Source of the DNA: Candidatus Pacebacteria bacterium CG2_30_36_39
Lineage (GTDB): Bacteria; Patescibacteriota; Microgenomatia; UBA1400; PJMF01
DNA length: 64,000 bases
NCBI GenBank assembly: GCA_001873435.1
Contig: MNZB01000003.1
Span: 137,789 to 201,788, forward strand
Direction of reading: 5' to 3'
In this document: positions 49,612 through 64,000 of the stretch, one piece after another
Layout: each line of letters opens with the position of its first letter
Position numbering within the stretch: position 1 is the first letter of the stretch
Program-made: the position numbers and the translations under genes
Notes under the pieces: generated by a model
What the model was told of the DNA's origin: nothing
Database searches by the model: none
The model's input: only the letters and a program-made list of their open reading frames with translations

Positions 49612-49685
49612 TGGGTGTACTACGAATCGAACGTAGGACCTCTGTCTTATCAGGACAGCGCTCTAACCATCTGAGCTATACACCC
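49612..49685 (-). tRNA. tRNA-Ile (anticodon GAU). CCA not encoded.
   Basis: rc gives GGGTGTATAGCTCAGATGGTTAGAGCGCTGTCCTGATAAGACAG...GGTTCGATTCGTAGTACACCCA. Anticodon loop CTGATAA. Confidence 0.8.
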
Positions 49686-50070: not shown

Positions 50071-50245
50071 GTCATCTGCTCTTTTTAAGGGCAGTGAGAC
50101 AGATGTTAACATCAGAATAAATTCTGAGCTAAACACGGTGGTGAAAAATGGCCTAGATATGGTGATCATAGGACTTGTTATTTCGAGAACATTACTGTTC
50201 TCGGGAGAAAGGAGGTCGTGATATCTCCTACCCGTTCTCCTTAGA

Positions 50246-51770
<1,525 letters not shown>

Positions 51771-52132
51771 TAAAAATTTATTTTTAAGTTTGAAACTGAT
51801 CTTTTTTTCTTCGTTATCTAAAAGATTTATTGTTTCTGGTTGATAATTTACCCCTGCTGGGATAAATCATCGATTTGGAATTAACGGATTCTTTTTTTAA
51901 AAAAAATCCATCAATGTAACATATTTCACCACCATGTTCATATCAGAATATGAATCCATGGTGTAAATTCTGTCTTAAGTCTATTAATTTGTTAATGTTC
52001 AACTTCTTTTTCACCGAAAAAAAGAAACAATCCCCGCTGGGGGCCGTCTCTTCTTTCCCGCGATTTGTGAATTCTATGTCATGTGACACGAATTGTGAAG
52101 TGGGAGATATTGTATCAAGTAATCATGAGATG

Positions 52133-53227
52133 TCAAAGGATGATTCCACCACCACCACAGATTATCTGATTTTGAGTATCTAAATAGAAAACAGCTGATT
52201 GCCCACTGGCTATTCCATGGGTTTTTTTTGTTAATTTTACCCTGAAATGTCCGTCTTTTTTTTCAATTACTCCACTTATTCTTTCACCAGTATGGCGAAT
52301 TCTAATAGTAAGCTTTTTATTAGCTAAAAGCTCATCTTCGCTTATTCCCAAGACATGCAATTTTTCCAAAGCAAAAGAATTTTTTAGTACTTGAAGGTGA
52401 GGACCAACTACTAATTGATTAATTTTTGGTTTTTTATCAATCACATAGAGAGCTGGTAATTCACCCTTTGATAGTTCTGGATTAAGTTTTGCATATTTTT
52501 TCTTATCATAGGTAAAACCATGTCTTTGGCCTATGGTATGAAACCATAAACCATGATGTTTTCCTAAGATATTTCCAGCTTCATCAACTATTTCACCTGG
52601 TTTTTCGCCCAAATTATCTTTGAGGAATTTGGGTACATTTATATCGCCCACAAAACAAATACCAACAGAATCTTTTTTATTGGCGACTGACAACTGATTT
52701 TTTATAGCTATTTCGCGAACTTCATCTTTATTTAGCTCTTGCAAGGGAAAAACAATATGAGGTAACTGCTCGCTTTTTATTTCATAAAGAAAATATGTTT
52801 GATCTTTATGTTTATCTTTTGGTATGAGTAATTGTTTGCCGTTTGTACCAGCATAATGACCAGTAGCAACGGCTTCATAGCCGTTTTTTATTGCCCATTC
52901 ATAAAATAAACCAAATTTAATAATCTTATTACACATCACATCAGGATTGGGAGTTCGACCAGCTTGATATTCACTTAAAAAATATCCCATGACTTTTTCT
53001 TTATATTCTTTTTTGAAATCTAAAACTTGAAAAGGAAGGTTGAGTTGTAAAGCAACCTTGAGTGCGTCTTTACGATCACCTTCAGCTCTACAGCCTGGTT
53101 CGTTCCAGCACTCAATATAGGCAGTATGCACATCATAACCAGCATCTCTAAGAAGCAGAGCGCTAACGGCGGAATCAACACCACCAGAGAGGCCTAAGAC
53201 TATTTTTTTACTATCGGGTACTAACAT
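52133..53227 (-). CDS. mnmA: tRNA-specific 2-thiouridylase MnmA
   Basis: PP-loop SGGVDSAV, catalytic Cys region, MnmA C-terminal beta-barrel. Confidence 0.85.
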   Translation of the reverse strand: MLVPDSKKIVLGLSGGVDSAVSALLLRDAGYDVHTAYIECWNEPGCRAEGDRKDALKVALQLNLPFQVLDFKKEYKEKVMGYFLSEYQAGRTPNPDVMCNKIIKFGLFYEWAIKNGYEAVATGHYAGTNGKQLLIPKDKHKDQTYFLYEIKSEQLPHIVFPLQELNKDEVREIAIKNQLSVANKKDSVGICFVGDINVPKFLKDNLGEKPGEIVDEAGNILGKHHGLWFHTIGQRHGFTYDKKKYAKLNPELSKGELPALYVIDKKPKINQLVVGPHLQVLKNSFALEKLHVLGISEDELLANKKLTIRIRHTGERISGVIEKKDGHFRVKLTKKTHGIASGQSAVFYLDTQNQIICGGGGIIL

Positions 53228-53253
53228 AAGTGGTCAGTATTATAGCTCAATGA

Positions 53254-54213
53254 CTAGACTAAGAAATTTTCTTTGGCAATCTCAGCAACTTTTCTTTTAT
53301 AAGCATCTGGATCTTTAGTGTAAAAACGAGGCAAAATCGGCTGAAACTTGGGATTTAAAACAACTGCTTTTGTAATATCCTGCCAAGATATTTTTCCATA
53401 ATAGAGTTCTTTTAAAGGAAAATTATTTTCTACCATAAACTTGGTAGTTTCCACAAAACCCTCAAAATAAACATAATCCTTAGTAAAACCTCCTGGCCTG
53501 CTAGTATCAGTGAGTCCTCTTTTCTTTTTGAAGGTTAAAGTAAAAGCTCGTTCTGCATCGCCTAGATAGTGATTTAAATATTGCCATACTTCTAAAAATG
53601 ATTCTTCCTGAGCTTTAATTGTGGCTAAAAAGTTTAGGGCAGCCATGTAGGTTAACTGCATTTTTTGTGGATACATAGCATGTAAGACAGCTAAACCTTC
53701 TTCAGTTTTTAGGTATGGAGCAAAACCGTAGTTCTTTTTTTTCTTAAACCAAGGTTGTTGTTCATAATTAATTCGACGTAGGGCATGAGTTCCAATTTCG
53801 TGGTAAAGCAAACTATCTAGGTCTTCTTTATAAATTGAACAAGGGAGTCTTAGTTTAATTTCGTTGGCATTGATAGCTGCTCTACTGACGAACTCTGCCG
53901 ACCAAATAATCTCAAATTTTCTTTCCAATCCATGAAGTTTGAGAAAATTTCTAATTTCACGAGAAACAATTTCTTCATTCAAAAGTTCGCCTCGTTGAGA
54001 CTGAAGCTCTTCAATAGAAAATTTGGTAAAAGTAGTTTCAATAATTTTTTCAGCTAAATCAATATATTTTGTATTGGGTAAACCATTTTGCACTAAATCT
54101 TCAGTAGCGAAAAAACGATAATAATTAAATTGAGGATTAAAGTTGGGACTAGCTAGAAAACGTTGTTTCTCTGCTAAAAAATTAGTTGGTTGTAGATCTG
54201 CAACGAGTCCCAT
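53254..54213 (-). CDS. DUF1704 / QEGLA-motif protein (putative HExxH zinc metallopeptidase)
   Basis: HEIGTHALR (HExxH) and TEEGLAV (QEGLA-like motif). 319 aa. Confidence 0.55.
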   Translation of the reverse strand: MGLVADLQPTNFLAEKQRFLASPNFNPQFNYYRFFATEDLVQNGLPNTKYIDLAEKIIETTFTKFSIEELQSQRGELLNEEIVSREIRNFLKLHGLERKFEIIWSAEFVSRAAINANEIKLRLPCSIYKEDLDSLLYHEIGTHALRRINYEQQPWFKKKKNYGFAPYLKTEEGLAVLHAMYPQKMQLTYMAALNFLATIKAQEESFLEVWQYLNHYLGDAERAFTLTFKKKRGLTDTSRPGGFTKDYVYFEGFVETTKFMVENNFPLKELYYGKISWQDITKAVVLNPKFQPILPRFYTKDPDAYKRKVAEIAKENFLV

Positions 54214-54230
54214 GTTTTTAACTTAGCTTT

Positions 54231-55511
54231 TTAAGCAGGTCTAATAACAAATCCTGCCAAATCATTCCTACCTATTTCAATTTTTTGAGTGCCTTTATTG
54301 AGTTTTTTGGAAACAACTGCTGAAGTAGTAATTACTTTATCTTTGAGTTTGAATTTCAATTCCACTACAGGGCGCTTACCTTCTCCAGCTACTTGTTGAT
54401 ACCACAAGAGATCATCGACATCTATTAAGCCTAGTTCTTTTGCTAGTTCACTAGAAATAATGGTGCGAAAACGACCAGTGTTAATAAGGGCTTTTTCATC
54501 GATTTTTTGTTTATCGTCACCATAGATAGTAACTGTTTCTTCAATTTCAATAATTGGAATTTCGCCGTCTTCCTTGATTTTACTGGCAAAATTTTCAGCA
54601 AACAGAGCTTGGGCAATTCTAACCCCATGTTCTGTGCTTAGAACATTGAGATCTCTAACTCTTTCCAAGCGTCTTCTGAGTCCCGCTTTATTTGCTACTT
54701 GAATAGATAAGCCAGGATAAGCATTGAGCTCTACTACCATAGGACCTTTTTCTTGATGGATAAAAATATCAACTCCGGTAAAAACTAGGCCAGCTGCTCT
54801 TGCCGCTCCTACCGCAGTCAAAAGAATTTCTTTCCAAAATGGAACGCGAATGCCATTGAGCTTAATTTTTGTATCGGGCATGTATTGAATTAATTGATTT
54901 TTATGAGCAGCTGCGTGAGTAGTAATGCCGGTAGCTATATCAACACCTACTCCCAAAGCTCCCTGGCTTTGATTGGCGCGTCCACCAGATTCTTCAGTTG
55001 GCAAACGTAAAAGAGCCATAACCGGAACGCTATTAAAGACGACCACTCTAACATCAGGAGTGCCTTTATAGCTATATTTTAGTAGTTTGGGGTGAATTGG
55101 AATACGTTCTTCAACAATGATGTTGTGATTTGAACCATGAGTACTATATTCTCCAGACAAAATGTCACCACAATGCAATTTAATATCATCGAGACTCCAA
55201 ACGTGACCTATAGCATCAGTCCAATGTTCTTTATCAGCATGTTGATTGCGGAAAGCAACTACTCCCTTACCAGCATGGCCATTAGTAGGTTTGATCACGA
55301 AGTCTTTTTCTAGTTTTTTCCAGTCAAATTCTTCAATGTCTTCTGAGGTTGCCAAGATACCATAAACTTGAGCGGTGGGAATATTTTGGCTTTGTAATAA
55401 TAATTTAGTAGCGTATTTTGAAATACAAAAAGATCGAGCTTTGCGAGAGTTGAGTGGGACATAAAGCTGGTTGCGAGCATTCATGCCCAGGATGTCATTG
55501 GCGAGTACCAT
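54231..55511 (-). CDS. RimK-like ATP-grasp ligase (alpha-L-glutamate-ligase-related) with ~110-aa C-terminal extra domain
   Basis: N-terminus MVLANDILGMNARNQLY typical of RimK-related ligases. ATP-grasp core (KPTNGHAGKGV, VVELNAYPGL). Internal start preferred. Confidence 0.6.
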   Translation of the reverse strand: MVLANDILGMNARNQLYVPLNSRKARSFCISKYATKLLLQSQNIPTAQVYGILATSEDIEEFDWKKLEKDFVIKPTNGHAGKGVVAFRNQHADKEHWTDAIGHVWSLDDIKLHCGDILSGEYSTHGSNHNIIVEERIPIHPKLLKYSYKGTPDVRVVVFNSVPVMALLRLPTEESGGRANQSQGALGVGVDIATGITTHAAAHKNQLIQYMPDTKIKLNGIRVPFWKEILLTAVGAARAAGLVFTGVDIFIHQEKGPMVVELNAYPGLSIQVANKAGLRRRLERVRDLNVLSTEHGVRIAQALFAENFASKIKEDGEIPIIEIEETVTIYGDDKQKIDEKALINTGRFRTIISSELAKELGLIDVDDLLWYQQVAGEGKRPVVELKFKLKDKVITTSAVVSKKLNKGTQKIEIGRNDLAGFVIRPA

Positions 55512-55515
55512 AAGC

Positions 55516-56448
55516 TTATTCCTCTTCTTCAATGATTGAAGTAAAGCGCACTCTCTCCAAGAGACGCAAACCGGTATATCTACCAATTAAAATATTTAGG
55601 CCAGCAACAGCTAATAAACTGAATTCTGGATAAAGTAAGACGAATTTTTGAATTGACTCTAGATTGATTAATAGTGCACAAAGAATAGCAACTAGAAGAG
55701 TTTCAAAAGTAATACTCAGGGCTTCTTTTTGACTACTGAATAGTTGAGTACTCATAAAGTTTTCTGTTAAGAGCATGATAATTAAAAGTGGAAAAATACT
55801 AATGCTTAGGAGTGAGCTAACATTAATCCAGGAAGCAAGTATTAGTAAACTGAGGATTAAGAAAGTTACTACCCAAAGCAACATGGCAGTTCTGGGTAGC
55901 AATGGTAGCTTGAAGTGTTTTACAGCGCTACGAGCAATGGTTGCGGCTGCTAAGACTGCTACAAATACTAAGACACCAGTTATGATTCCGGTTGAAACAA
56001 AAGCCACAGATAAGACGGCTGGAATGTAGACACCAAAGCCTTTTAGACCCACAACATGACGGGAAACAGCAATTAATGAGGCAATTAATGGAAATAATAA
56101 CATCAACACAATAATATTGGCTGGTAAGCCATTGGCAATGGCTCTACGAATGGCGTGTTGTAAAGGATTGTGCCAAGACAATCCTCCGATGGGATGTTCG
56201 TCTAAGTAGGCAGCTAATTTGCTTTTTTGCTTACCACCAGTTTCTGTAATGTCTTGATCTTTTTTTTCTTGAATTTTTTGGTCTAGTTCAGCCGATGAAG
56301 ATGCTAGATTTCCAGCATCGCTAGCTTCGATGGGGCTGGTTGCTTCTAATACCTGTTTTAGTGGTTCTACTGTTAAGGCTTTGGCTGGAAAGACAGCGAT
56401 AAGTCCGAATAGTAGAACAAATAGAAGGGTTAATCCGAGCTTTTTCAT
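55516..56448 (-). CDS. Seven-TM membrane protein with N-terminal signal peptide (7TM partner of the ATP-grasp cassette; no fused transglutaminase domain)
   Basis: Signal peptide, ~90-aa exported segment, then 7 hydrophobic helices, acidic C-terminus EEEE. Confidence 0.5.
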   Translation of the reverse strand: MKKLGLTLLFVLLFGLIAVFPAKALTVEPLKQVLEATSPIEASDAGNLASSSAELDQKIQEKKDQDITETGGKQKSKLAAYLDEHPIGGLSWHNPLQHAIRRAIANGLPANIIVLMLLFPLIASLIAVSRHVVGLKGFGVYIPAVLSVAFVSTGIITGVLVFVAVLAAATIARSAVKHFKLPLLPRTAMLLWVVTFLILSLLILASWINVSSLLSISIFPLLIIMLLTENFMSTQLFSSQKEALSITFETLLVAILCALLINLESIQKFVLLYPEFSLLAVAGLNILIGRYTGLRLLERVRFTSIIEEEE

Positions 56449-56501
56449 ATTGTTATTATACCAGGATTGATTGGTCAGTGCATTTTTTTACACAACCAAA
56501 C

Positions 56502-56858
56502 TTAGATTACTAATGTGACAAAACCTTGAACAAAACCGATTAAAATTGAAGCAAAGAGAATCGAGCCAAATCGACTCAAGTGATAGCCAAAAACGATCAT
56601 GTTGGAAATTTCGAAACCAGGTACTAAATAGGTAACTAACCACAACATTGCTACGTTGATTACGACGGAAAACAGACCAAAAGTAACAACATTGATAGGT
56701 AAAAATAGAAATTTAATAATTGGTTTAATGATTTTTTGTACAAAGACCATGACTAGACTGGCAATGAGCATAGTGGTCCAGTCTGAAAAACTAATGGTGG
56801 GAAGAAAATAAGAGAGAATCCAAAAAGTAACGCTGGTGTTGAGAAAAAGTCTAAGCAT
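56502..56858 (-). CDS. DUF360 / phage-holin-4-like small membrane protein
   Basis: LPINVVTFGLFSVVINVAMLWLVTYLVPGFEI matches the DUF360 core. Confidence 0.55.
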   Translation of the reverse strand: MLRLFLNTSVTFWILSYFLPTISFSDWTTMLIASLVMVFVQKIIKPIIKFLFLPINVVTFGLFSVVINVAMLWLVTYLVPGFEISNMIVFGYHLSRFGSILFASILIGFVQGFVTLVI

Positions 56859-56865
56859 TAATTGT

Positions 56866-57417
56866 TTATGTATATTTTCTTATTTCTTCAGCTGCTTTAC
56901 TTGCAACTTCTTTTATTAATTCATCACCTTCTAAGTTAAACAATTCCAAGATAAGTTTAGTTGCTTCTGGATCATTTTTCAAAAGTTCAATAAATTTATC
57001 CATTTCTTCACCGGTTGGCAAAATTGGTAAAACTTTTTCCCATAACAGAAATCCATGCTCAGTCATTCCAGAAGGAGTCCAATCAATACTAGCATCTGCA
57101 ACCCGAACAGTTTTATAAGTTATTTCTCTGCCATTGGGAAGTGTATTTTGTAAATGAGTTAGTTGTTTTTGAGAGGTAATAGAAGTTTGATCATCTTGGA
57201 AAACAACAATTTTATGTTTTAATTTTTTATCAGCAAAAAATCTAGACAAAATTCCATATAATTTATCTGCTAAAACATCACCTTCAAAACCTTCTTTAAA
57301 ACTTGTTCTTATTTCAACTAATTCGCTATGTTGCGGGTTAGATTCTTTTTCTTGGGCGGCATCAAACTCTTCAAAAGCTGATTCTAGCCCTGCCAATAGA
57401 TTATTTTCTTCATTCAT
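56866..57417 (-). CDS. Hypothetical acidic cytoplasmic protein (183 aa)
   Basis: ORF tightly packed between uvrC and the DUF360 gene. No recognisable motif. Confidence 0.35.
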   Translation of the reverse strand: MNEENNLLAGLESAFEEFDAAQEKESNPQHSELVEIRTSFKEGFEGDVLADKLYGILSRFFADKKLKHKIVVFQDDQTSITSQKQLTHLQNTLPNGREITYKTVRVADASIDWTPSGMTEHGFLLWEKVLPILPTGEEMDKFIELLKNDPEATKLILELFNLEGDELIKEVASKAAEEIRKYT

Positions 57418-57441
57418 AGTTACATTTTACACACTTTTTAA

Positions 57442-58788
57442 CTATTTATTCAACAAAGCTCTAGTGTGTCTTTTACTCCATTGTTTTTTGGCAAAGCGAT
57501 GAGCTTCGTTTCTTAATTGTTGAATTAGTTTCAATGCTGGATGATCAGGTCCAAGATTAAGAATTTGATATTTTTCTTGTTTTTCTACTGGTAGTGGGAT
57601 AACTAATCTATCTGGATTTTTAGCAATACCTATTACTGGTATTTGCCATTGCCAAATTTGTAAAACTGCTTTGACTTGGCCTTTGCCACCATCTATAACC
57701 ACCAAGTCTGGCTTCCCCCACTCTGGATGATTTTGGCGACGAACCAAAGCTTCTTTCATCATATGATAATCATTAGGAGTATCAAGAGAATAGATATTAA
57801 ATAACTTATATTCACTTGGATTTGCTATTCCATTTTCTGTTACCACCATCGAAACAGCGGCATTTTTACCTTGAACATTGCTTACGTCATAACCTTCAAT
57901 TCTGGATAATTTTTTAGTTTTTGGAAATCTAGTATAAGTTGAAAGAATTTTTTTTAATTCAATAATACCTAATTCTTGTTGATTGAGGCCAAAGCCAGGT
58001 AAAACTAAATCCGGTTTAAGTTGATAGTTTTTTTGTGTAACTTCTTGGATGTATTGAATGCGTTGCTTAATTATCTGTGCCTGTTCATATTCTTGAGTCT
58101 CAGAAAATTGACGCATTTGTAGGGTTAGGTTTTTAAGTACTTCTCTCTTTTTGCCTTTAAGAAAAAGTTTTAAATTATTGATATTTTCTGCGTAGTTTTC
58201 TGGAGAAATTAAGTCAAGACAAACCCCTGGACATTGATCTAAATGGTAGTAAAAACAAGCCTTTTTTTGATCAGTAATTGGTTGATTGCACCAAGGAAAT
58301 ATTTTTCGAGCAATTTTTAAAACTTCATTAACCTTATAACTACTTTGGAATGGCCCAAGAATAGTTCCTTTGGGATTTTCGGTAATCAAATCTGTTTTAC
58401 GCTTTTTTAAGACTTTAGGAAACTTTTCATTAGTAATTAATAAGTAGATGGGAGATTTGTCGTCTTTGAGCCTGATATTAAAAAAGGGTTGATGGGTATG
58501 AATTAGTTCTGCTTCAATTAATAGAGCCTCTAACTCACTATCTAAAACTTGATATCTTACTTCAGTTGCAGTTGTGACGAGTTTTTTAATTCGTGAAGAA
58601 AGCTGTGAATATTGAGTGTAACTAGTGAGGCGATTTTTTAGATTTTTGGCTTTACCAACGTAAAGAATCTTAGCGTTTTTGTCTAAGAACGAGTACACTC
58701 CCGGTTCCAAGGGCCAAGAGGATCGCTGCTCCGCCCAAGGCAAAGATGGTGTAAGGATGGGCAATGGTTTGGACGAAGTTCGGTGCAT
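57442..58788 (-). CDS. uvrC: Excinuclease ABC subunit C (short form lacking C-terminal HhH). Start uncertain, may be further downstream.
   Basis: GIY-YIG N-terminus (PGVYSFLDKNAKILYVGKAKNLKNRL), UvrC homology region, RNase H-like endonuclease domain. Track ORF begins with TTG at 58800 and overlaps the upstream gene by ~130 nt. Confidence 0.75.
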   Translation of the reverse strand: MHRTSSKPLPILTPSLPWAEQRSSWPLEPGVYSFLDKNAKILYVGKAKNLKNRLTSYTQYSQLSSRIKKLVTTATEVRYQVLDSELEALLIEAELIHTHQPFFNIRLKDDKSPIYLLITNEKFPKVLKKRKTDLITENPKGTILGPFQSSYKVNEVLKIARKIFPWCNQPITDQKKACFYYHLDQCPGVCLDLISPENYAENINNLKLFLKGKKREVLKNLTLQMRQFSETQEYEQAQIIKQRIQYIQEVTQKNYQLKPDLVLPGFGLNQQELGIIELKKILSTYTRFPKTKKLSRIEGYDVSNVQGKNAAVSMVVTENGIANPSEYKLFNIYSLDTPNDYHMMKEALVRRQNHPEWGKPDLVVIDGGKGQVKAVLQIWQWQIPVIGIAKNPDRLVIPLPVEKQEKYQILNLGPDHPALKLIQQLRNEAHRFAKKQWSKRHTRALLNK

Positions 58789-60547
58789 TGGTGATAGCAA
58801 AGTCTTTTGTTACGACACTTTCACCATTCATGTTGAAAGTGAAATGGAGAGTGTCCTTGGTCGGCAGTGCTCCATGTGTATTATAAACAAAGAGTTGCAA
58901 ACTTAAGGTTTCAAAAGGTAGTAGAGCTTTTATGGCTGTGTCACCAAAAACTCTAACTCCAGAATTATTTGAAGCTAAATCAAAATTTAGGTTATACCAA
59001 GCAGCTCCTGATTTGTTTTTAATTTTAAGATCATAAAAACCAGGCATTCCAATCCAGGTGTTTTTTTGTGGTTCCAAAGTAACTTCAAAATTTGGTTCTT
59101 GTTCTGGAAAGCTTTTGCCAAAGTTTACTTCTAGGGTTTTTTCTTTTTGCTGTTTGTCTGTTTTATATGATCCAGCTGGGTATGGCAAAGTACTTGATTC
59201 TCCATTAATGGCTAGAACAATATGATTAAGATCAAAGTGATTAAAATAATCAACGCCACCAGTAGTATTTTCCCAGGTGGGGTCAATTGGTTGCCAGTTT
59301 TGTTTTTCCTCATTCCAGTATTCTGGCCAGGCATGCAAAATATCATTGCCTAAACTTAGTGGTCGCAAACGACTGTTTTCTGCATAGCCATAACCAGTAA
59401 TTACTCTAGCAGGGATTTTGTTTATTCTAGCTAGGGTTACAAATAAATCGGAGAATTCTTGACAGGCCGCTTGATCTGGTTTTTCTAAAGCCTTAATTGC
59501 TCCTTTGCGCTCCAAATTATCAATAGAATCTATTTGTGCATATTCCAATTGACTAGTAACAAAGTCATAAACTTCTTTTGGACTAGGGTGTTCAGCGGCA
59601 ATTTTCTGTAAGTCAGCATTGTCTGTTTCCCAAAATGGTTGTTTGGCCAAATTAAAAGCTTGGGGATAAGCAATGGGAACCAAAGGATTTTGCTCTAAAG
59701 TTAAAAGTGCTTGAGCTTTAACTTTAACCGCTTGAGCAGTGTTGCCTTGCATATAAAAAGTAGCGATCCAGTTACCATCTTTATCTAGTTTCATTTCGGT
59801 TGGCTCTGGTTCAATGGATGAATAATTCATTCTTTGGAAAGGAGTATCTGGTGGTAAAGCTGTTTGCAATAGAATGGGCTGAGAATTATTGTTTTCTAAA
59901 AAGTAAGTAAAGTTCAAATCATAAATTTGTTCATAACCAAAAAGAGCAGAGACTCCTTGGTCACCCAAATCTCCGAACACCATTTGAACGCCTTTTTCAG
60001 TTAATTTTTGCACATAGTTAGTAGCTGGAGTTACTCTAGTTGCTGAACCAAAGCGAATTGGTGTATTGAGCACAACTTCAATATGTGCATATTTATGAGG
60101 ATCAGCTTGTTTGGGAACTGCTACTTCCAAAACACTGCCGTTGGCTTGAGCAAGATCTGGGTTGGTGTAACTAATGGTAAAAGTTCTTGTTTTGCCTTCA
60201 CCAACCAATTTATCTGGAAAAGTAATACCAATGTTAGTTTGGTTGTCTACCTGAGTAACTTCTGGATCAAGATTTTTGCCATTTTCCATTACTCTCACAC
60301 CAGAAATACTAGTAGAGCTAGTGCGTAGGCCATGCTTAGTAATGTAATAGGTTGGGGTAAGGTTTTTGATGGTAAATGTATGCTCAACGTAAGTAGAGCC
60401 ATTTTCTTGGACGTTGTAAGTACTTTTTAGGGAGTTTTCAAAAGCTTGCTCTGCTTCTATTTGCTCTTGTTGAGCAAGGACTACAGAATTAAAGCCAAAA
60501 AGGCTGATTATGCTAAAAAATAATCCAAGTAATAACTTACGCATCAT
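58670..60547 (-). CDS. Secreted transglutaminase-like cysteine protease/cross-linking enzyme with C-terminal TM anchor
   Basis: Signal peptide. TGase core motifs with intact triad (C in ACQEFSDLFVTLARINKIPARVITGYGY; H in HAWPEYW; D in IDPTWEN). C-terminal hydrophobic helix + RQKR. Confidence 0.6.
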   Translation of the reverse strand: MMRKLLLGLFFSIISLFGFNSVVLAQQEQIEAEQAFENSLKSTYNVQENGSTYVEHTFTIKNLTPTYYITKHGLRTSSTSISGVRVMENGKNLDPEVTQVDNQTNIGITFPDKLVGEGKTRTFTISYTNPDLAQANGSVLEVAVPKQADPHKYAHIEVVLNTPIRFGSATRVTPATNYVQKLTEKGVQMVFGDLGDQGVSALFGYEQIYDLNFTYFLENNNSQPILLQTALPPDTPFQRMNYSSIEPEPTEMKLDKDGNWIATFYMQGNTAQAVKVKAQALLTLEQNPLVPIAYPQAFNLAKQPFWETDNADLQKIAAEHPSPKEVYDFVTSQLEYAQIDSIDNLERKGAIKALEKPDQAACQEFSDLFVTLARINKIPARVITGYGYAENSRLRPLSLGNDILHAWPEYWNEEKQNWQPIDPTWENTTGGVDYFNHFDLNHIVLAINGESSTLPYPAGSYKTDKQQKEKTLEVNFGKSFPEQEPNFEVTLEPQKNTWIGMPGFYDLKIKNKSGAAWYNLNFDLASNNSGVRVFGDTAIKALLPFETLSLQLFVYNTHGALPTKDTLHFTFNMNGESVVTKDFAITNAPNFVQTIAHPYTIFALGGAAILLALGTGSVLVLRQKR

Positions 60548-60593
60548 ACTAAGGCTATATTAGCCAATAAATTTAGTTAATGCTAGATAAGGT

Positions 60594-63572
60594 TTATTTT
60601 TTTTGAGCGGCGAACTCTGATTTGAGATATTGGCCAGTAAAAGAATTTGTAATTTGAGCTAGTTCTTGTGGTGAACCAGTTGCAATGATTTCACCACCAT
60701 ATTCCCCACCCTCTGGTCCCAAATCAATGATCCAGTCGGCATTTTTAATAACATCGAGATTGTGTTCGATTAAAACAACTGTATTATTTTGAGAAACCAA
60801 TTGATGTAAAACAAAAAGTAACTTTTGTACGTCAGCAAAATGTAGACCGGTGGTTGGCTCATCTAATAAGTAAACTACGTGGTCATTGGTGCGTAAACTT
60901 AATTCACGAGCTAATTTAACACGTTGGGCTTCTCCACCACTCAAAGTTGGAGCTGGTTGTCCTAGTTCCAAATATCCCAAACCGACTTCGACTAGGGTTT
61001 GGAGTTTTTGCTTTAAGTTGCTATTGGTTTTGAAAAATTCTAAAGCATCTTCAATGCTTAATTTAAGAATTTCAGCAATGTTTTTGCCCTTGTATAAAAC
61101 TTGTAGTGTTTCTTCATTATATCGTTGGCCATTGCAGACATCACAAGTAACATAAACATCTGGTAAAAACTGCATTTCAATCTTAATTTGTCCATCTCCT
61201 TGGCAGGTTTCACAGCGTCCACCTTTGACGTTAAAACTAAACCTACCGGGATTATAACCACGAATATGAGCTTCTTGGGTATTGGCAAAAATTTTACGAA
61301 TGTAATCAAAAATCTTGGTATAAGTAGCTGGATTGGAGCGAGGTGTTTTGCCAATAGGACTCTGATCAATTAATGAGACTCTACGGACAACATCTGGAAT
61401 CATAACTTGCTGTACTGAGCCAGCATAATTTTCAGTTTTACGTTCCAAGTGTTTCATTAGTTGGTGATAGAGAGTGTCGTGAAGCAAAGTAGATTTGCCG
61501 CTGCCAGAGAGGCCAGTAATACAGTTTAAAGAATTAAGTGGAAAGTCTACGTCAATGTTTTTAAGATTATGATGAGTTGCACCACGAAGCTGAATAGCTC
61601 CAGAGTGACCTTTAACTTTAGCAGTTTCATCTGGGTCAATGATTTTTCTTGTTACTTCTTTTTCTCTAGTTACGTCTTTTTTACGAGATAAGTATTTACC
61701 AGTTATAGAGCTGGGTAATTTCATTATCTCTTCTGGAGTGCCTTCGGCAATGATTGAACCTCCATGTTTGCCAGCTCCAGGTCCAAAGTCAAAAATGTAA
61801 TCAGAAGACAACATTACATCGCGGTCATGTTCAACTACGATAACGGTGTTACCTTGATTTTTGAGGTTTTGTAAAGTTTCAACTAAACGATCATTGTCTC
61901 TAGGATGCAAGCCAATAGTTGGTTCATCTAAAATATATAAAACCCCAGTTAGGCCGGTACCAATTTGTGAGGCTAGGCGAATACGCTGAGCTTCTCCTCC
62001 AGCTAGAGTTGAGGCTTCACGACTGAGTGATAAATAATTCAAACCAACTGAAGTTAAGAAACGAAGACGAGCCACAATTTCTTTTAAGATTGGTTTACTA
62101 ATTTCTATTTCTTTATTAGAAAGTTTCTTTTCTAGTTGTAAGGCATCTGACCAATCTAGTGCGCGCTGAATTGTCATTCCAGTTACATCAGCAATATTTT
62201 TTTGATCGATTTTAACTGCTAGCGAAGCTGGTTTGAGACGAAGGCCTTTACAATCTGGACAAGTTTCTTTGTGCATGAATTGTTCAATTTCCTTGCGGAT
62301 ATAGTCACTGTCTGTTTCTTGATAGCGTCTTTCTAGGTTGGTGATAAAGCCTTCAAATTTTTCTTGGATTAAAGTTTCCTTGCCAAAACGGTTTTCACCA
62401 GTAACGGTATAAATTTTAGGCGAGCCGTAAAGTAAAGTTTTTTGGAATTCTTCACTCATTTCTTCATAGGTGGTTTTGCGGAAGTCATAGCCATTTTCAA
62501 TTACTACTGTTTGGACAAGTCTGGCCCACCAAGTGTCATTGCTCATAGTGCGAGCAAAGGGAATAATGGCTCCTTCGCTAAGAGTTAAACTTGGGGCAAT
62601 GATTTTTTCAGAGTTAACTCTTAAAAGAGATCCAAGTCCATTACAAGTAGCACAGGCTCCTTCTGGTGCGTTGAAAGAAAATATTCTTGGCTCAAGTTCT
62701 TTAATAGAAATCCCGCAATGACTACAAGCTAGTTTTTCACTAAAAAGATAATCTTCCATGTTTTTTGGTTTGTCTGGAAAATTAAGTGAGTCATCATTAA
62801 TGAAACTAGCTACAACTAGACCGGCAGAAAGTTTTAAGGCTTCTTCTATGGTTTGTGATAAACGTGATTTTAGAGTTTTCATTTCTTGTTTGTCGCGGAG
62901 TTGTTTTTTGGAAAAACTCAAGCGATCAAGAATTGCTTCAATAGTGTGTTTATTGGTTTTTAGTAAAGAAATATTTTCATTTAAATCAAAGACTTCTCCA
63001 TCAATACGCACTCTGCTATATCCTTGCTTTTGCAAGTTATTAAACATTGAGGAGAACTCACCTTTGCGATTTTGAATAACTGGAGAAAGGATCATGAATC
63101 GAGTTGGTTGAGCATCAGCTTTTTCTTCCAATTTATTTACGATTTGACCAATAATTTGGTCGATGCTTTGAGTGCTAACTTCACGACCACATTCTGGACA
63201 ATGAGGATGACCAATGCGAGCAAAAAGTAAGCGTAAATAATCATAGATTTCTGTGATGGTGCCAACTGTAGAACGAGGGTTGTGTGAAGTAGTTTTTTGG
63301 TCAATAGAAATAGCTGGAGATAATCCTTGGATTTGGTCAACATCAGGTTTCTGCATGATGCCCAAAAACTGTCTGGCATAAGAACTCAATGATTCCACGT
63401 ATCGACGTTGGCCCTCCGCGTAGAGAGTGTCGAAGGCTAAGGATGTTTTGCCACTGCCAGAAAGGCCGGTAAAAACTACTAGCTGATTTTTAGGAATTGA
63501 GAGCGAGACATTTTTTAAGTTGTGTTCACGAGCTCCAGAGATAATGATGTGGTCCAAAGAAGTTTTAAGCAT
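60594..63572 (-). CDS. uvrA: Excinuclease ABC subunit A
   Basis: Two ABC ATPase modules (GLSGSGKTSLAFDT, GLSGSGKSTL), zinc-finger Cys clusters. 992 aa. Confidence 0.9.
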   Translation of the reverse strand: MLKTSLDHIIISGAREHNLKNVSLSIPKNQLVVFTGLSGSGKTSLAFDTLYAEGQRRYVESLSSYARQFLGIMQKPDVDQIQGLSPAISIDQKTTSHNPRSTVGTITEIYDYLRLLFARIGHPHCPECGREVSTQSIDQIIGQIVNKLEEKADAQPTRFMILSPVIQNRKGEFSSMFNNLQKQGYSRVRIDGEVFDLNENISLLKTNKHTIEAILDRLSFSKKQLRDKQEMKTLKSRLSQTIEEALKLSAGLVVASFINDDSLNFPDKPKNMEDYLFSEKLACSHCGISIKELEPRIFSFNAPEGACATCNGLGSLLRVNSEKIIAPSLTLSEGAIIPFARTMSNDTWWARLVQTVVIENGYDFRKTTYEEMSEEFQKTLLYGSPKIYTVTGENRFGKETLIQEKFEGFITNLERRYQETDSDYIRKEIEQFMHKETCPDCKGLRLKPASLAVKIDQKNIADVTGMTIQRALDWSDALQLEKKLSNKEIEISKPILKEIVARLRFLTSVGLNYLSLSREASTLAGGEAQRIRLASQIGTGLTGVLYILDEPTIGLHPRDNDRLVETLQNLKNQGNTVIVVEHDRDVMLSSDYIFDFGPGAGKHGGSIIAEGTPEEIMKLPSSITGKYLSRKKDVTREKEVTRKIIDPDETAKVKGHSGAIQLRGATHHNLKNIDVDFPLNSLNCITGLSGSGKSTLLHDTLYHQLMKHLERKTENYAGSVQQVMIPDVVRRVSLIDQSPIGKTPRSNPATYTKIFDYIRKIFANTQEAHIRGYNPGRFSFNVKGGRCETCQGDGQIKIEMQFLPDVYVTCDVCNGQRYNEETLQVLYKGKNIAEILKLSIEDALEFFKTNSNLKQKLQTLVEVGLGYLELGQPAPTLSGGEAQRVKLARELSLRTNDHVVYLLDEPTTGLHFADVQKLLFVLHQLVSQNNTVVLIEHNLDVIKNADWIIDLGPEGGEYGGEIIATGSPQELAQITNSFTGQYLKSEFAAQKK

Positions 63573-63650
63573 AATTTTTTTGTCTTAAAAACGAGGAGCT
63601 ATTATACCTCAGATTCGGTTATATTTCGAGTATGGGAGTAGTAAAAAAGA

Positions 63651-64000
63651 TTACTGTTTTAAATCTTGGATTATGTCTCTTAATTCAGCAGCTAATTCAA
63701 AATCAAGATCAACGGCTGCGCGACGCATTTTTAAATCAAGTTTTTTAATATATTGCTCTTTTTCATCAGGGGTTAAGGAGTCTGGTTTGAGATCTTGTAG
63801 ATTAACAAACTCATTTTTTTTGAGTTGGATTACTCTACCCTTTCTTTTATGGGCAGCTATTTCTGTACCTTCCTCATCTTCTTCTTTTAGTAATAGTTTT
63901 TCACGAATTGGTTTTTGAATTCCAGTTGGGGTGATGTTGTATTGTAAGTTGTAAGCGACTTGAACTTCTCGGCGTCTTTGTGTTTCTTCAATAGATTTTC
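63651..64000 (-). CDS. uvrB: Excinuclease ABC subunit B, C-terminal part (gene continues beyond the window end)
   Basis: rc translation ends ...MRRAAVDLDFELAAELRDIIQDLKQ*, the UvrB C-terminal UVR domain. Confidence 0.7.
   Translation of the reverse strand, partial: KSIEETQRRREVQVAYNLQYNITPTGIQKPIREKLLLKEEDEEGTEIAAHKRKGRVIQLKKNEFVNLQDLKPDSLTPDEKEQYIKKLDLKMRRAAVDLDFELAAELRDIIQDLKQ

Follow-up and report, generated by a model that had tools for sequence, protein, structure and literature searches.

A predicted membrane-anchored transglutaminase-like protein family of Microgenomatia, encoded near a PF04020 membrane protein and often overlapping uvrC

TgpA (PA2873; PDB 6g49/6g4h) of Pseudomonas aeruginosa is a membrane-bound protein that carries a transglutaminase core of the PF01841 family outside the cytoplasm. 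The periplasmic domain of TgpA has transglutaminase activity in vitro, and the protein is important for viability; a cell-wall-linked role was proposed by the authors of that work (PMC3507681). Here, we analyze a gene for a 625-amino-acid (aa) transglutaminase-like protein, referred to as TG, in a 64,000-nucleotide (nt) stretch of DNA from Candidatus Pacebacteria bacterium CG2_30_36_39 (contig MNZB01000003.1, positions 137,789 to 201,788; the whole stretch is called the window here). TG resembles TgpA in its attachment to the membrane and its predicted extracytoplasmic PF01841 core, and the Cys-His-Asp motifs of the two proteins (C..., HAW.EYW, and DPT) align. However, TgpA is a proteobacterial protein with six transmembrane (TM) helices and an N-terminal TgpA_N domain (PF11992), whereas TG has a putative cleavable signal peptide, two extra N-terminal β domains, an immunoglobulin (Ig)-like stalk, and a single C-terminal TM helix. 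TG gave no match to PF11992 and does not have the TgpA architecture of TgpA_N, Transglut_core, and DUF4129. We favor, as the somewhat probable explanation, that TG is an independent Cys-His-Asp ectoenzyme that acts on the envelope throughout the Microgenomatia lineage of the Patescibacteria, with a PF04020 protein as its membrane partner.

Other described proteins share parts of TG or of its surroundings. A putative cysteine protease of Cytophaga hutchinsonii (PDB 3isr; Bact_transglu_N plus Transglut_core, COG1305 type) resembles TG in fold but not in localization; it is 286 to 293 residues long with no assigned function, whereas TG is predicted to be exported and anchored and has additional domains. 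The 3isr-type family is mostly cytoplasmic and is linked to operons encoding circularly permuted ATP-grasp and Alpha-E proteins. A fold search also matched TG to the pseudomurein endoisopeptidases PeiW and PeiP and to LapG, which are distant (~10% identity) and differ in their accessory domains. PeiW and PeiP are cell-wall isopeptidases, and LapG is a periplasmic protease of surface proteins. The window also contains a cassette of three genes that shares the PF14402 module and the ATPgrasp_ST protein with RloABC systems, in which RloB is an inactive transglutaminase fused to a seven-TM (7TM) module (PF14400 plus PF14402). The cassette differs from RloABC in having a MATCAP/QEGLA peptidase in place of the secreted retropepsin RloA. 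TG is unlike RloB in that it has no similarity to PF14400, has an intact triad, is not fused to a 7TM module, and is also found without the cassette. In P. aeruginosa, rloB and rloC function in osmotic-stress tolerance, cell shape, and antibiotic resistance (10.1101/2025.03.18.643919).

The TG gene and the parts of its product are as follows.

58670-60547, minus strand: TG gene, an open reading frame (ORF) with an ATG start encoding the 625-aa transglutaminase-like protein (PF01841)
60473-60547, minus strand: putative signal peptide, aa 1 to 25 (MMRKLLLGLFFSIISLFGFNSVVLA), recognized by reading the sequence; cleavage probably occurs before QQ
59678-60448, minus strand: two N-terminal β-sandwich domains, aa ~34 to 290, with invariant LPPDTxFQ and DxDGNW motifs
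59138-59650, minus strand: transglutaminase core, aa ~300 to 470, holding Cys362, His405, and Asp422
58778-59134, minus strand: C-terminal Ig-like β-sandwich stalk, aa ~472 to 590 (strands at 472 to 586 in the AlphaFold2 [AF2] model, with a predicted local distance difference test [pLDDT] score of ~90)
58673-58756, minus strand: C-terminal TM helix and RQKR tail, aa 598 to 625 (AF2 helix at 598 to 624)

The identification of TG as a transglutaminase-like protein was based on its domain match, its catalytic residues, and its fold. Residues 323 to 423 match Transglut_core (PF01841) with an E value of 7.3e-16 and a score of 58.8 bits against a cutoff of 23; this is the single Pfam domain of TG, and the match recurs when the isolated core is used as the query. 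The putative catalytic residues are Cys362 in CQEFSDLF (codon 59462-59464), His405 in HAWPEYW (codon 59333-59335), and Asp422 in IDPTWEN (codon 59282-59284). All three are invariant in an alignment of 31 homologs with 40 to 72% identity, as are R347, G349, D367, R374, R381, W407, P408, W418, P423, T424, and W425 and, in the N-terminal half, the LPPDTxFQ and DxDGNW motifs. Comparison of a TG family profile with solved structures returned the transglutaminase domain of TgpA (6g49, E = 1e-6), with the C, HAW.EYW, and DPT motifs aligned, and the Cytophaga protein 3isr (E = 2.6e-6). The TG core has the transglutaminase/papain-like fold, and in every respect that could be tested TG is a member of the transglutaminase-like superfamily. 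An initial annotation of the window had listed the Cys, His, and Asp motifs and had called for a check that they lie at conserved positions; the codons and the alignments bear this out. TG is predicted to be catalytically intact, and activity is expected from the conservation of its triad.

A highly conserved loop, ENSRLRPLSLGND (aa 388 to 401; 59345-59386, minus strand), lies beside the catalytic His. L394 and P396 are invariant and S398 is almost so, and residues 397 to 401 are the sole internal stretch of TG with a pLDDT below 50. The loop may be a mobile lid or may bind the substrate.

The predicted topology of TG is that of a surface protein. The AF2 model, which was built on the homolog alignment (pLDDT 85.9; predicted template modeling score 0.79), places a signal helix before β domains at 36 to 283, an α/β core at ~300 to 470, a β sandwich at 472 to 586, and a TM helix at 598 to 624. 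The N-terminal β-sandwich domains are DUF2207_N/Bact_transglu_N-like, and Bact_transglu_N (PF08379) matches TG below the Pfam threshold (E = 0.09); no Pfam family matched the Ig-like stalk. By eye, the n-, h-, and c-regions of a Sec signal peptide can be read in the N terminus (MMRKLLLGLFFSIISLFGFNSVVLA, followed by QQ). Hydrophobic N termini ending in A-Q are common to all 31 aligned homologs, and a TM helix followed by a basic tail closes every homolog, with or without an overlap with uvrC. These features suggest that TG is exported, loses its signal peptide, and is held outside the cell by its C-terminal TM helix. They agree with the initial annotation, in which the same 625-aa ORF, a signal peptide, and a C-terminal TM anchor with an RQKR tail had been noted.

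TG belongs to a large family of fixed architecture that extends across the Microgenomatia within the Patescibacteria. With a word-indexed search we obtained more than 1900 homologs, and among the best 120, nearly all aligned over 90 to 100% of the query, were ~610 to 690 aa long, and carried PF01841 only. When 1.84 billion cluster representatives were searched exhaustively with phmmer, there were 1892, 1097, and 755 TG clusters at E values of ≤1e-3, ≤1e-10, and ≤1e-30, respectively; the best 150 were mostly ~600 to 650 aa long and aligned over most of their length. Where source names were given, they were Patescibacteria, Pacebacteria, and Woesebacteria, and a second search, for which a distant TG member served as the query, added Beckwithbacteria. 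Because the genomes of Patescibacteria are tiny, the upkeep of a ~620-aa surface enzyme with one architecture in hundreds of lineages suggests that TG is probably important for the envelope or for lifestyle. Homologs are already named "transglutaminase-like domain-containing protein" in public records, and the family has so far been annotated only as "transglutaminase-like"; a limited literature search found no paper on the family, on its pairing with PF04020, or on its overlap with uvrC. TG thus represents a lineage-specific subfamily, so far uncharacterized, of an enzyme type that is already known.

The genes around TG in the window are listed below, from upstream to downstream.

60594-63572, minus strand: uvrA, directly upstream of TG with a gap of 46 nt (UvrA domains found with Pfam in relatives)
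58670-58800, minus strand: region in which the 3' end of TG and the 5' end of uvrC overlap out of frame, from the sequence and both translations
57442-58800, minus strand: uvrC, a short form with GIY-YIG, UVR, and RNaseH-like domains (TIGR00194, 335 bits, and Pfam)
56502-56858, minus strand: gene for a 118-aa membrane protein with four TM helices (PF04020, "Phage_holin_4_2"; E = 1.4e-22)
53254-56448, minus strand: 7TM/ATP-grasp/MATCAP cassette, whole
55516-56448, minus strand: 7TM_transglut gene of the cassette, without the inactive transglutaminase domain (Pfam, NCBIfam)
54231-55586, minus strand: ATPgrasp_ST gene of the cassette (Pfam, NCBIfam)
53254-54213, minus strand: MATCAP/QEGLA gene of the cassette (Pfam, NCBIfam)

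We collected 92 loci around members of the TG family, 88 of them nonredundant, from sources that included a contig scan with a single sequence (6 loci) and a metagenome scan with an alignment (80 loci). The loci were annotated with profiles made from the window's own neighboring genes in a view of ±10 kb per gene, and each count of gene context takes in only those loci with enough flank. The PF04020 gene is the most constant neighbor, lying 3' of TG in 66 of 68 loci. uvrC directly follows TG in 59 of 79 loci, and where it is absent the PF04020 gene directly adjoins or overlaps TG (20/20). uvrA lies no more than 1.6 kb upstream in 35 of 53 loci, and only 27 of 48 have a 7TM gene within 6 kb. 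The underlying order, uvrB-uvrA-TG-uvrC-PF04020-X, is old and conserved, with X depending on the clade. In the Pacebacteria/Woesebacteria-type clade, this slot holds the 7TM/ATP-grasp/MATCAP cassette, and in the Beckwithbacteria-type clade it holds an SBP_bac_5 gene. Among 46 well-flanked and further deduplicated loci, the PF04020 gene is followed by the cassette in 27, by SBP_bac_5 in 18, by neither in 1, and by both in none. The cassette class holds the nearest relatives of the window (TG identity of ~37 to 100%, plus one locus at 32%); the SBP_bac_5 class, which includes the Beckwithbacteria-type sequences, is more distant (31 to 38%). The SBP_bac_5 gene encodes an N-terminally membrane-anchored protein of the oligopeptide-binding family (PF00496, E = 5.6e-29) and fills the cassette's slot directly after the PF04020 gene in L054, L085, L088 (L088:12300-13547), L090, L091, and 13 other loci. 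No ATP-binding cassette (ABC) permease or ATPase genes stand beside it in the loci examined.

A scan of positions 52000-64000 for promoters and terminators gave counts no higher than those of shuffled controls, and operon boundaries could therefore not be assigned. The PF04020 protein has no match in PHROGs, which leaves the name "holin" without support in that database. An origin from a defense system or a phage was rejected, as PADLOC and PHROG searches were negative for TG, the PF04020 protein, the cassette proteins, and a 183-aa ORF. This acidic ORF (56866-57417, minus strand) separates uvrC from the PF04020 gene; it is without a match in Pfam, NCBIfam, PADLOC, or PHROGs and without a homolog in the 92 loci first collected, in which uvrC usually abuts the PF04020 gene without it. 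It looks like a lineage-specific insertion.

The TG and uvrC genes are joined by more than proximity. The true start of uvrC lies somewhere in 58704-58800, and the overlap is at least 35 nt long and spans the conserved PGVY motif of UvrC. The conserved N-terminal UvrC motif EPGVYSFLDKNAK is encoded at ~58707-58669, and the same bases, read in another frame, encode the end of TG, GTGSVLVLRQKR, followed by its stop codon; the TG tail GSVLVLRQKR shares bases with the conserved UvrC sequence PGVYSFLDKNAK. The distance that separates the PGVY P codon from the end of the TG stop codon is exactly 35 nt in the window; 23 of 54 related loci have the same value, and in most of the others it is positive. 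Such a long overlap, with conserved codons in both genes, probably locks TG and uvrC together. The pair would be hard to separate, and this probably helps to explain why a surface enzyme is kept inside a string of DNA repair genes; the adjacency of TG to uvr genes should accordingly not be read as shared function. The conserved tail could also have been taken for a C-terminal sorting signal (GSLLVFRRKR in the family). This possibility was rejected: wherever uvrC does not overlap, a TM helix and basic residues still make up the tail, yet the GS(L/V)LV(F/L)R(R/Q)K(R/K) motif is gone, which indicates that the conserved RQKR tail arose as a side effect of dual coding. The initial annotation had noted neither this dual coding nor the uvrC overlap and the constant PF04020 partner. 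Conserved adjacency and an "RRKR" tail thus stem partly from overprinting, a warning against reading them as common function or as a sorting signal. The dual-coding overlap with uvrC and the alternating third slot, occupied by the cassette or the SBP_bac_5 gene, are results that can be reused beyond this locus.

UvrC is short in this lineage, at ~420 to 450 aa in the window and 349 to 453 aa in relatives. No Pfam match to a C-terminal helix-hairpin-helix domain was found in the UvrC of the window.

What TG does can be proposed from its superfamily. After Sec export, the ectodomain would be raised on the Ig-like stalk above the C-terminal TM anchor. Cys362, activated by His405 and Asp422, would attack an amide bond of an envelope peptide, giving a thioester intermediate. 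The substrate might be a stem peptide or cross-bridge of peptidoglycan, or else a surface protein. Resolution by water would amount to hydrolysis, making TG a protease, isopeptidase, or deamidase, and resolution by an amine would amount to transamidation, giving a cross-link. TG would most likely act with the co-encoded four-TM PF04020 protein. An envelope substrate is favored because the nearest characterized relatives act outside the cytoplasm on envelope targets. This chemistry is borrowed from the superfamily; the architecture, fold, triad, family size, gene contexts, and overlap are direct observations. An independent surface cross-linking enzyme or protease had been one of two possibilities raised in the initial annotation, and it is the one that fits all of the evidence.

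Several points weigh against this explanation. Catalysis and an envelope substrate are predictions drawn from sequence, which is compatible with protease and with transglutaminase chemistry alike, and cooperation with the PF04020 protein is suggested by the adjacency of the genes. Furthermore, the cassette is always found two to three genes downstream of TG in the window's clade (27 loci and 6/6 reverse look-ups), and all 120 best Patescibacterial homologs of its 7TM protein lack the extracellular inactive transglutaminase domain, so that a partnership in trans is conceivable. Finally, the profile comparison that separates TG from RloB, described below, was made with one canonical sequence, which limits its sensitivity.

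The other possibility raised initially was that TG is a split and reactivated part of the 7TM system. Its factual premises hold. The 7TM protein of the window matches PF14402 only (aa 114 to 305, covering positions 314 to 507 of the 508-position RloB model), with no match to PF14400 even at an E value of ≤10, and 2222 nt separate the TG stop codon from the 7TM start, which follows downstream on the same strand, with uvrC, the 183-aa ORF, and the PF04020 gene in between. However, a split-domain origin of TG was rejected. The TG core gave no PF14400 match at an E value of ≤10, only PF01841. As a reference we used a PF14400-plus-PF14402 protein from a textbook retropepsin/inactive transglutaminase-7TM/ATP-grasp operon on a Legionella adelaidensis plasmid; hhalign comparison of the TG family profile with this single canonical sequence, and hence with limited sensitivity, gave a probability of 0.1% and an E value of 0.56. 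TG shows none of the three hallmarks of the PF14400 domain, namely, sequence similarity, fusion to PF14402, and loss of catalytic residues. The 120 best homologs of the window's 7TM protein are all unfused, at 283 to 394 aa with PF14402 only and at least 57% identity, and in 6 of 6 long contigs picked from among 7TM homologs the genes uvrB-uvrA-TG-uvrC-PF04020 lie directly upstream of the 7TM gene. The co-occurrence of TG and the cassette, proposed as a check in the initial annotation, is therefore real in one clade (27 loci) but is not seen within ±10 kb in 18 of 46 loci, and it forms part of a longer frozen order that includes uvrA, uvrC, and usually mnmA. TG is not a split-off of the 7TM cassette; its neighborhood reflects conserved gene order, and the cassette is a clade-specific neighbor that may or may not work with TG. 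In place of a split and reactivated domain, we propose an independent ectoenzyme with a constant four-TM partner and a gene order frozen by a dual-coding overlap.

TG could nonetheless serve the cassette without sharing its descent. It might dock extracellularly on a 7TM protein that has lost its inactive transglutaminase domain and process or cross-link a peptide product on which the ATP-grasp ligase and the MATCAP-like peptidase also act, with no common ancestry of the transglutaminase domains. We regard such a trans-complementing role as unlikely, although some observations favor it: TG is on the same strand as the cassette in all 27 loci that have both, no terminator signal above chance separates the genes, and the association outlasts insertions (a radical-SAM gene in L005; in L001, six genes that part uvrA from TG) as well as the loss of uvrC in L019. 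The same order, however, contains uvrA, uvrC, and mnmA, which makes the adjacency nonspecific, and uvrC and the PF04020 gene stand between TG and the cassette. The unfused 7TM proteins examined, given their high identity, constitute one shallow clade, and SBP_bac_5 replaces the cassette in 18 of the 46 loci that have TG and PF04020; the TG core and PF14400 are also unrelated in sequence. The SBP_bac_5 loci invite another idea, that TG is a peptide-harvesting or host-directed surface protease. Its targets would be cell-wall peptides or proteins that are external or on the host surface; in one clade the SBP_bac_5 protein would capture the fragments, and in the other the 7TM cassette would handle them. 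A Cys-His-Asp peptidase fold outside the cell would suit this purpose, a membrane-anchored PF00496 oligopeptide-binding protein is encoded downstream of the PF04020 gene in 18 of 18 cassette-less loci, and Patescibacteria are widely described as epibionts that draw resources from host cells (PMC13622651). We nevertheless find harvesting highly improbable, since TG is tethered to its own membrane, the SBP gene has no ABC permease or ATPase genes beside it in the loci examined, PADLOC and PHROG searches revealed no relation, and the substrate is conjectural.

A further explanation concerns regulation and is compatible with an independent envelope ectoenzyme: TG and the PF04020 protein might be a DNA damage-linked envelope factor, cotranscribed with uvrBAC and under the control of LexA where lexA adjoins, that remodels the envelope or delays division. 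There are precedents for such gene positions. YneA of Bacillus subtilis and ChiZ (Rv2719c) of Mycobacterium tuberculosis are membrane-anchored, cell-wall-directed division inhibitors whose genes are divergent from lexA. Beckwithbacteria-type TG resembles them in position only, as a gene for a membrane-anchored extracellular domain divergent from lexA; TG has no relation to them in sequence or fold, the window's clade has no adjacent lexA, and no LexA box was identified. In 17 of 19 loci of the SBP_bac_5 class, a divergent lexA gene (assigned by its Peptidase_S24 and LexA_DNA_bind domains) directly borders TG on the upstream side, or borders uvrB where uvrBA lie ahead of TG; the lexA-TG intergenic regions measure 38 to 112 nt. 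An element, CCCGAA-N9-14-TGTCAA, occurs once per locus and only in lexA-TG intergenic regions, in 13 loci (L053, L062 to L064, L068 to L071, L079, L081, L085 [at L085:9958-9980], L088, and L091). TG is wedged between uvrA and uvrC and overlaps the latter, and in L054 and L085, where the uvr genes are not around TG, they are consolidated just downstream in the same locus. However, the reverse strand of the element, which is the lexA strand, reads TTGACA, so that the element may be just the lexA promoter; it is probably this, or otherwise some unclassified operator. The window does not contain it. The Cheo-type LexA box GAACN4GTTC is likewise absent from the window and from 28 lexA-proximal regions, though LexA of this lineage may recognize another motif, and counting exact palindromes across 23 intergenic regions revealed no convincing operator. 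Among loci of the window's clade, lexA is divergent in 0 of 17 and on the same strand within 3 kb in 4 of 17, and the window itself contains none. In tiny genomes with long mixed operons, co-location is also weak evidence of coregulation. We therefore think a damage link quite unlikely; SOS control is a lead for part of the TG family, not a finding for this window. A composite of these ideas, which we judge very unlikely, would have TG and PF04020 form an envelope-remodeling pair built into a Microgenomatia nucleotide excision repair/lexA unit, with the cassette or an orphan SBP_bac_5 in the third slot, so that DNA damage would be coupled to covalent surface modification and, in the Pacebacteria/Woesebacteria clade, active TG would act in trans as the missing 7TM ectodomain. 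The alternation of the slot and the embedding among lexA and uvr genes offer leads for work on the function of the 7TM/ATP-grasp (RloBC-like) system.

A complete 16S rRNA gene (50245-51773, minus strand) is found just downstream of mnmA in the window, followed by a tRNA gene (49612-49685, minus strand). An Rfam scan of the 64-kb window found no 23S or 5S rRNA, and the rRNA genes thus appear to be unlinked.

The cassette itself has unusual features. The ATPgrasp_ST protein carries a C-terminal extension of ~130 aa (54231-54650, minus strand) that is not in the canonical Legionella RloC-like protein (314 aa). The extension has weak retropepsin-like matches (PF13975, E = 0.065; PF13650, E = 0.13), with "INTGRF" in place of the retropepsin D-T/S-G, and may be a fused, possibly inactive RloA/RimB-like domain. 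In several relatives (L005, L029, L036, L038, L040, L042, and L094), MATCAP is followed by additional RimK-like ATP-grasp paralogs, from one to three in number. In L099 such paralogs are placed between the ATP-grasp and MATCAP genes, and in L005 the radical-SAM gene is inserted between the PF04020 and 7TM genes. The cassette is expandable in the Pacebacteria/Woesebacteria-type clade.

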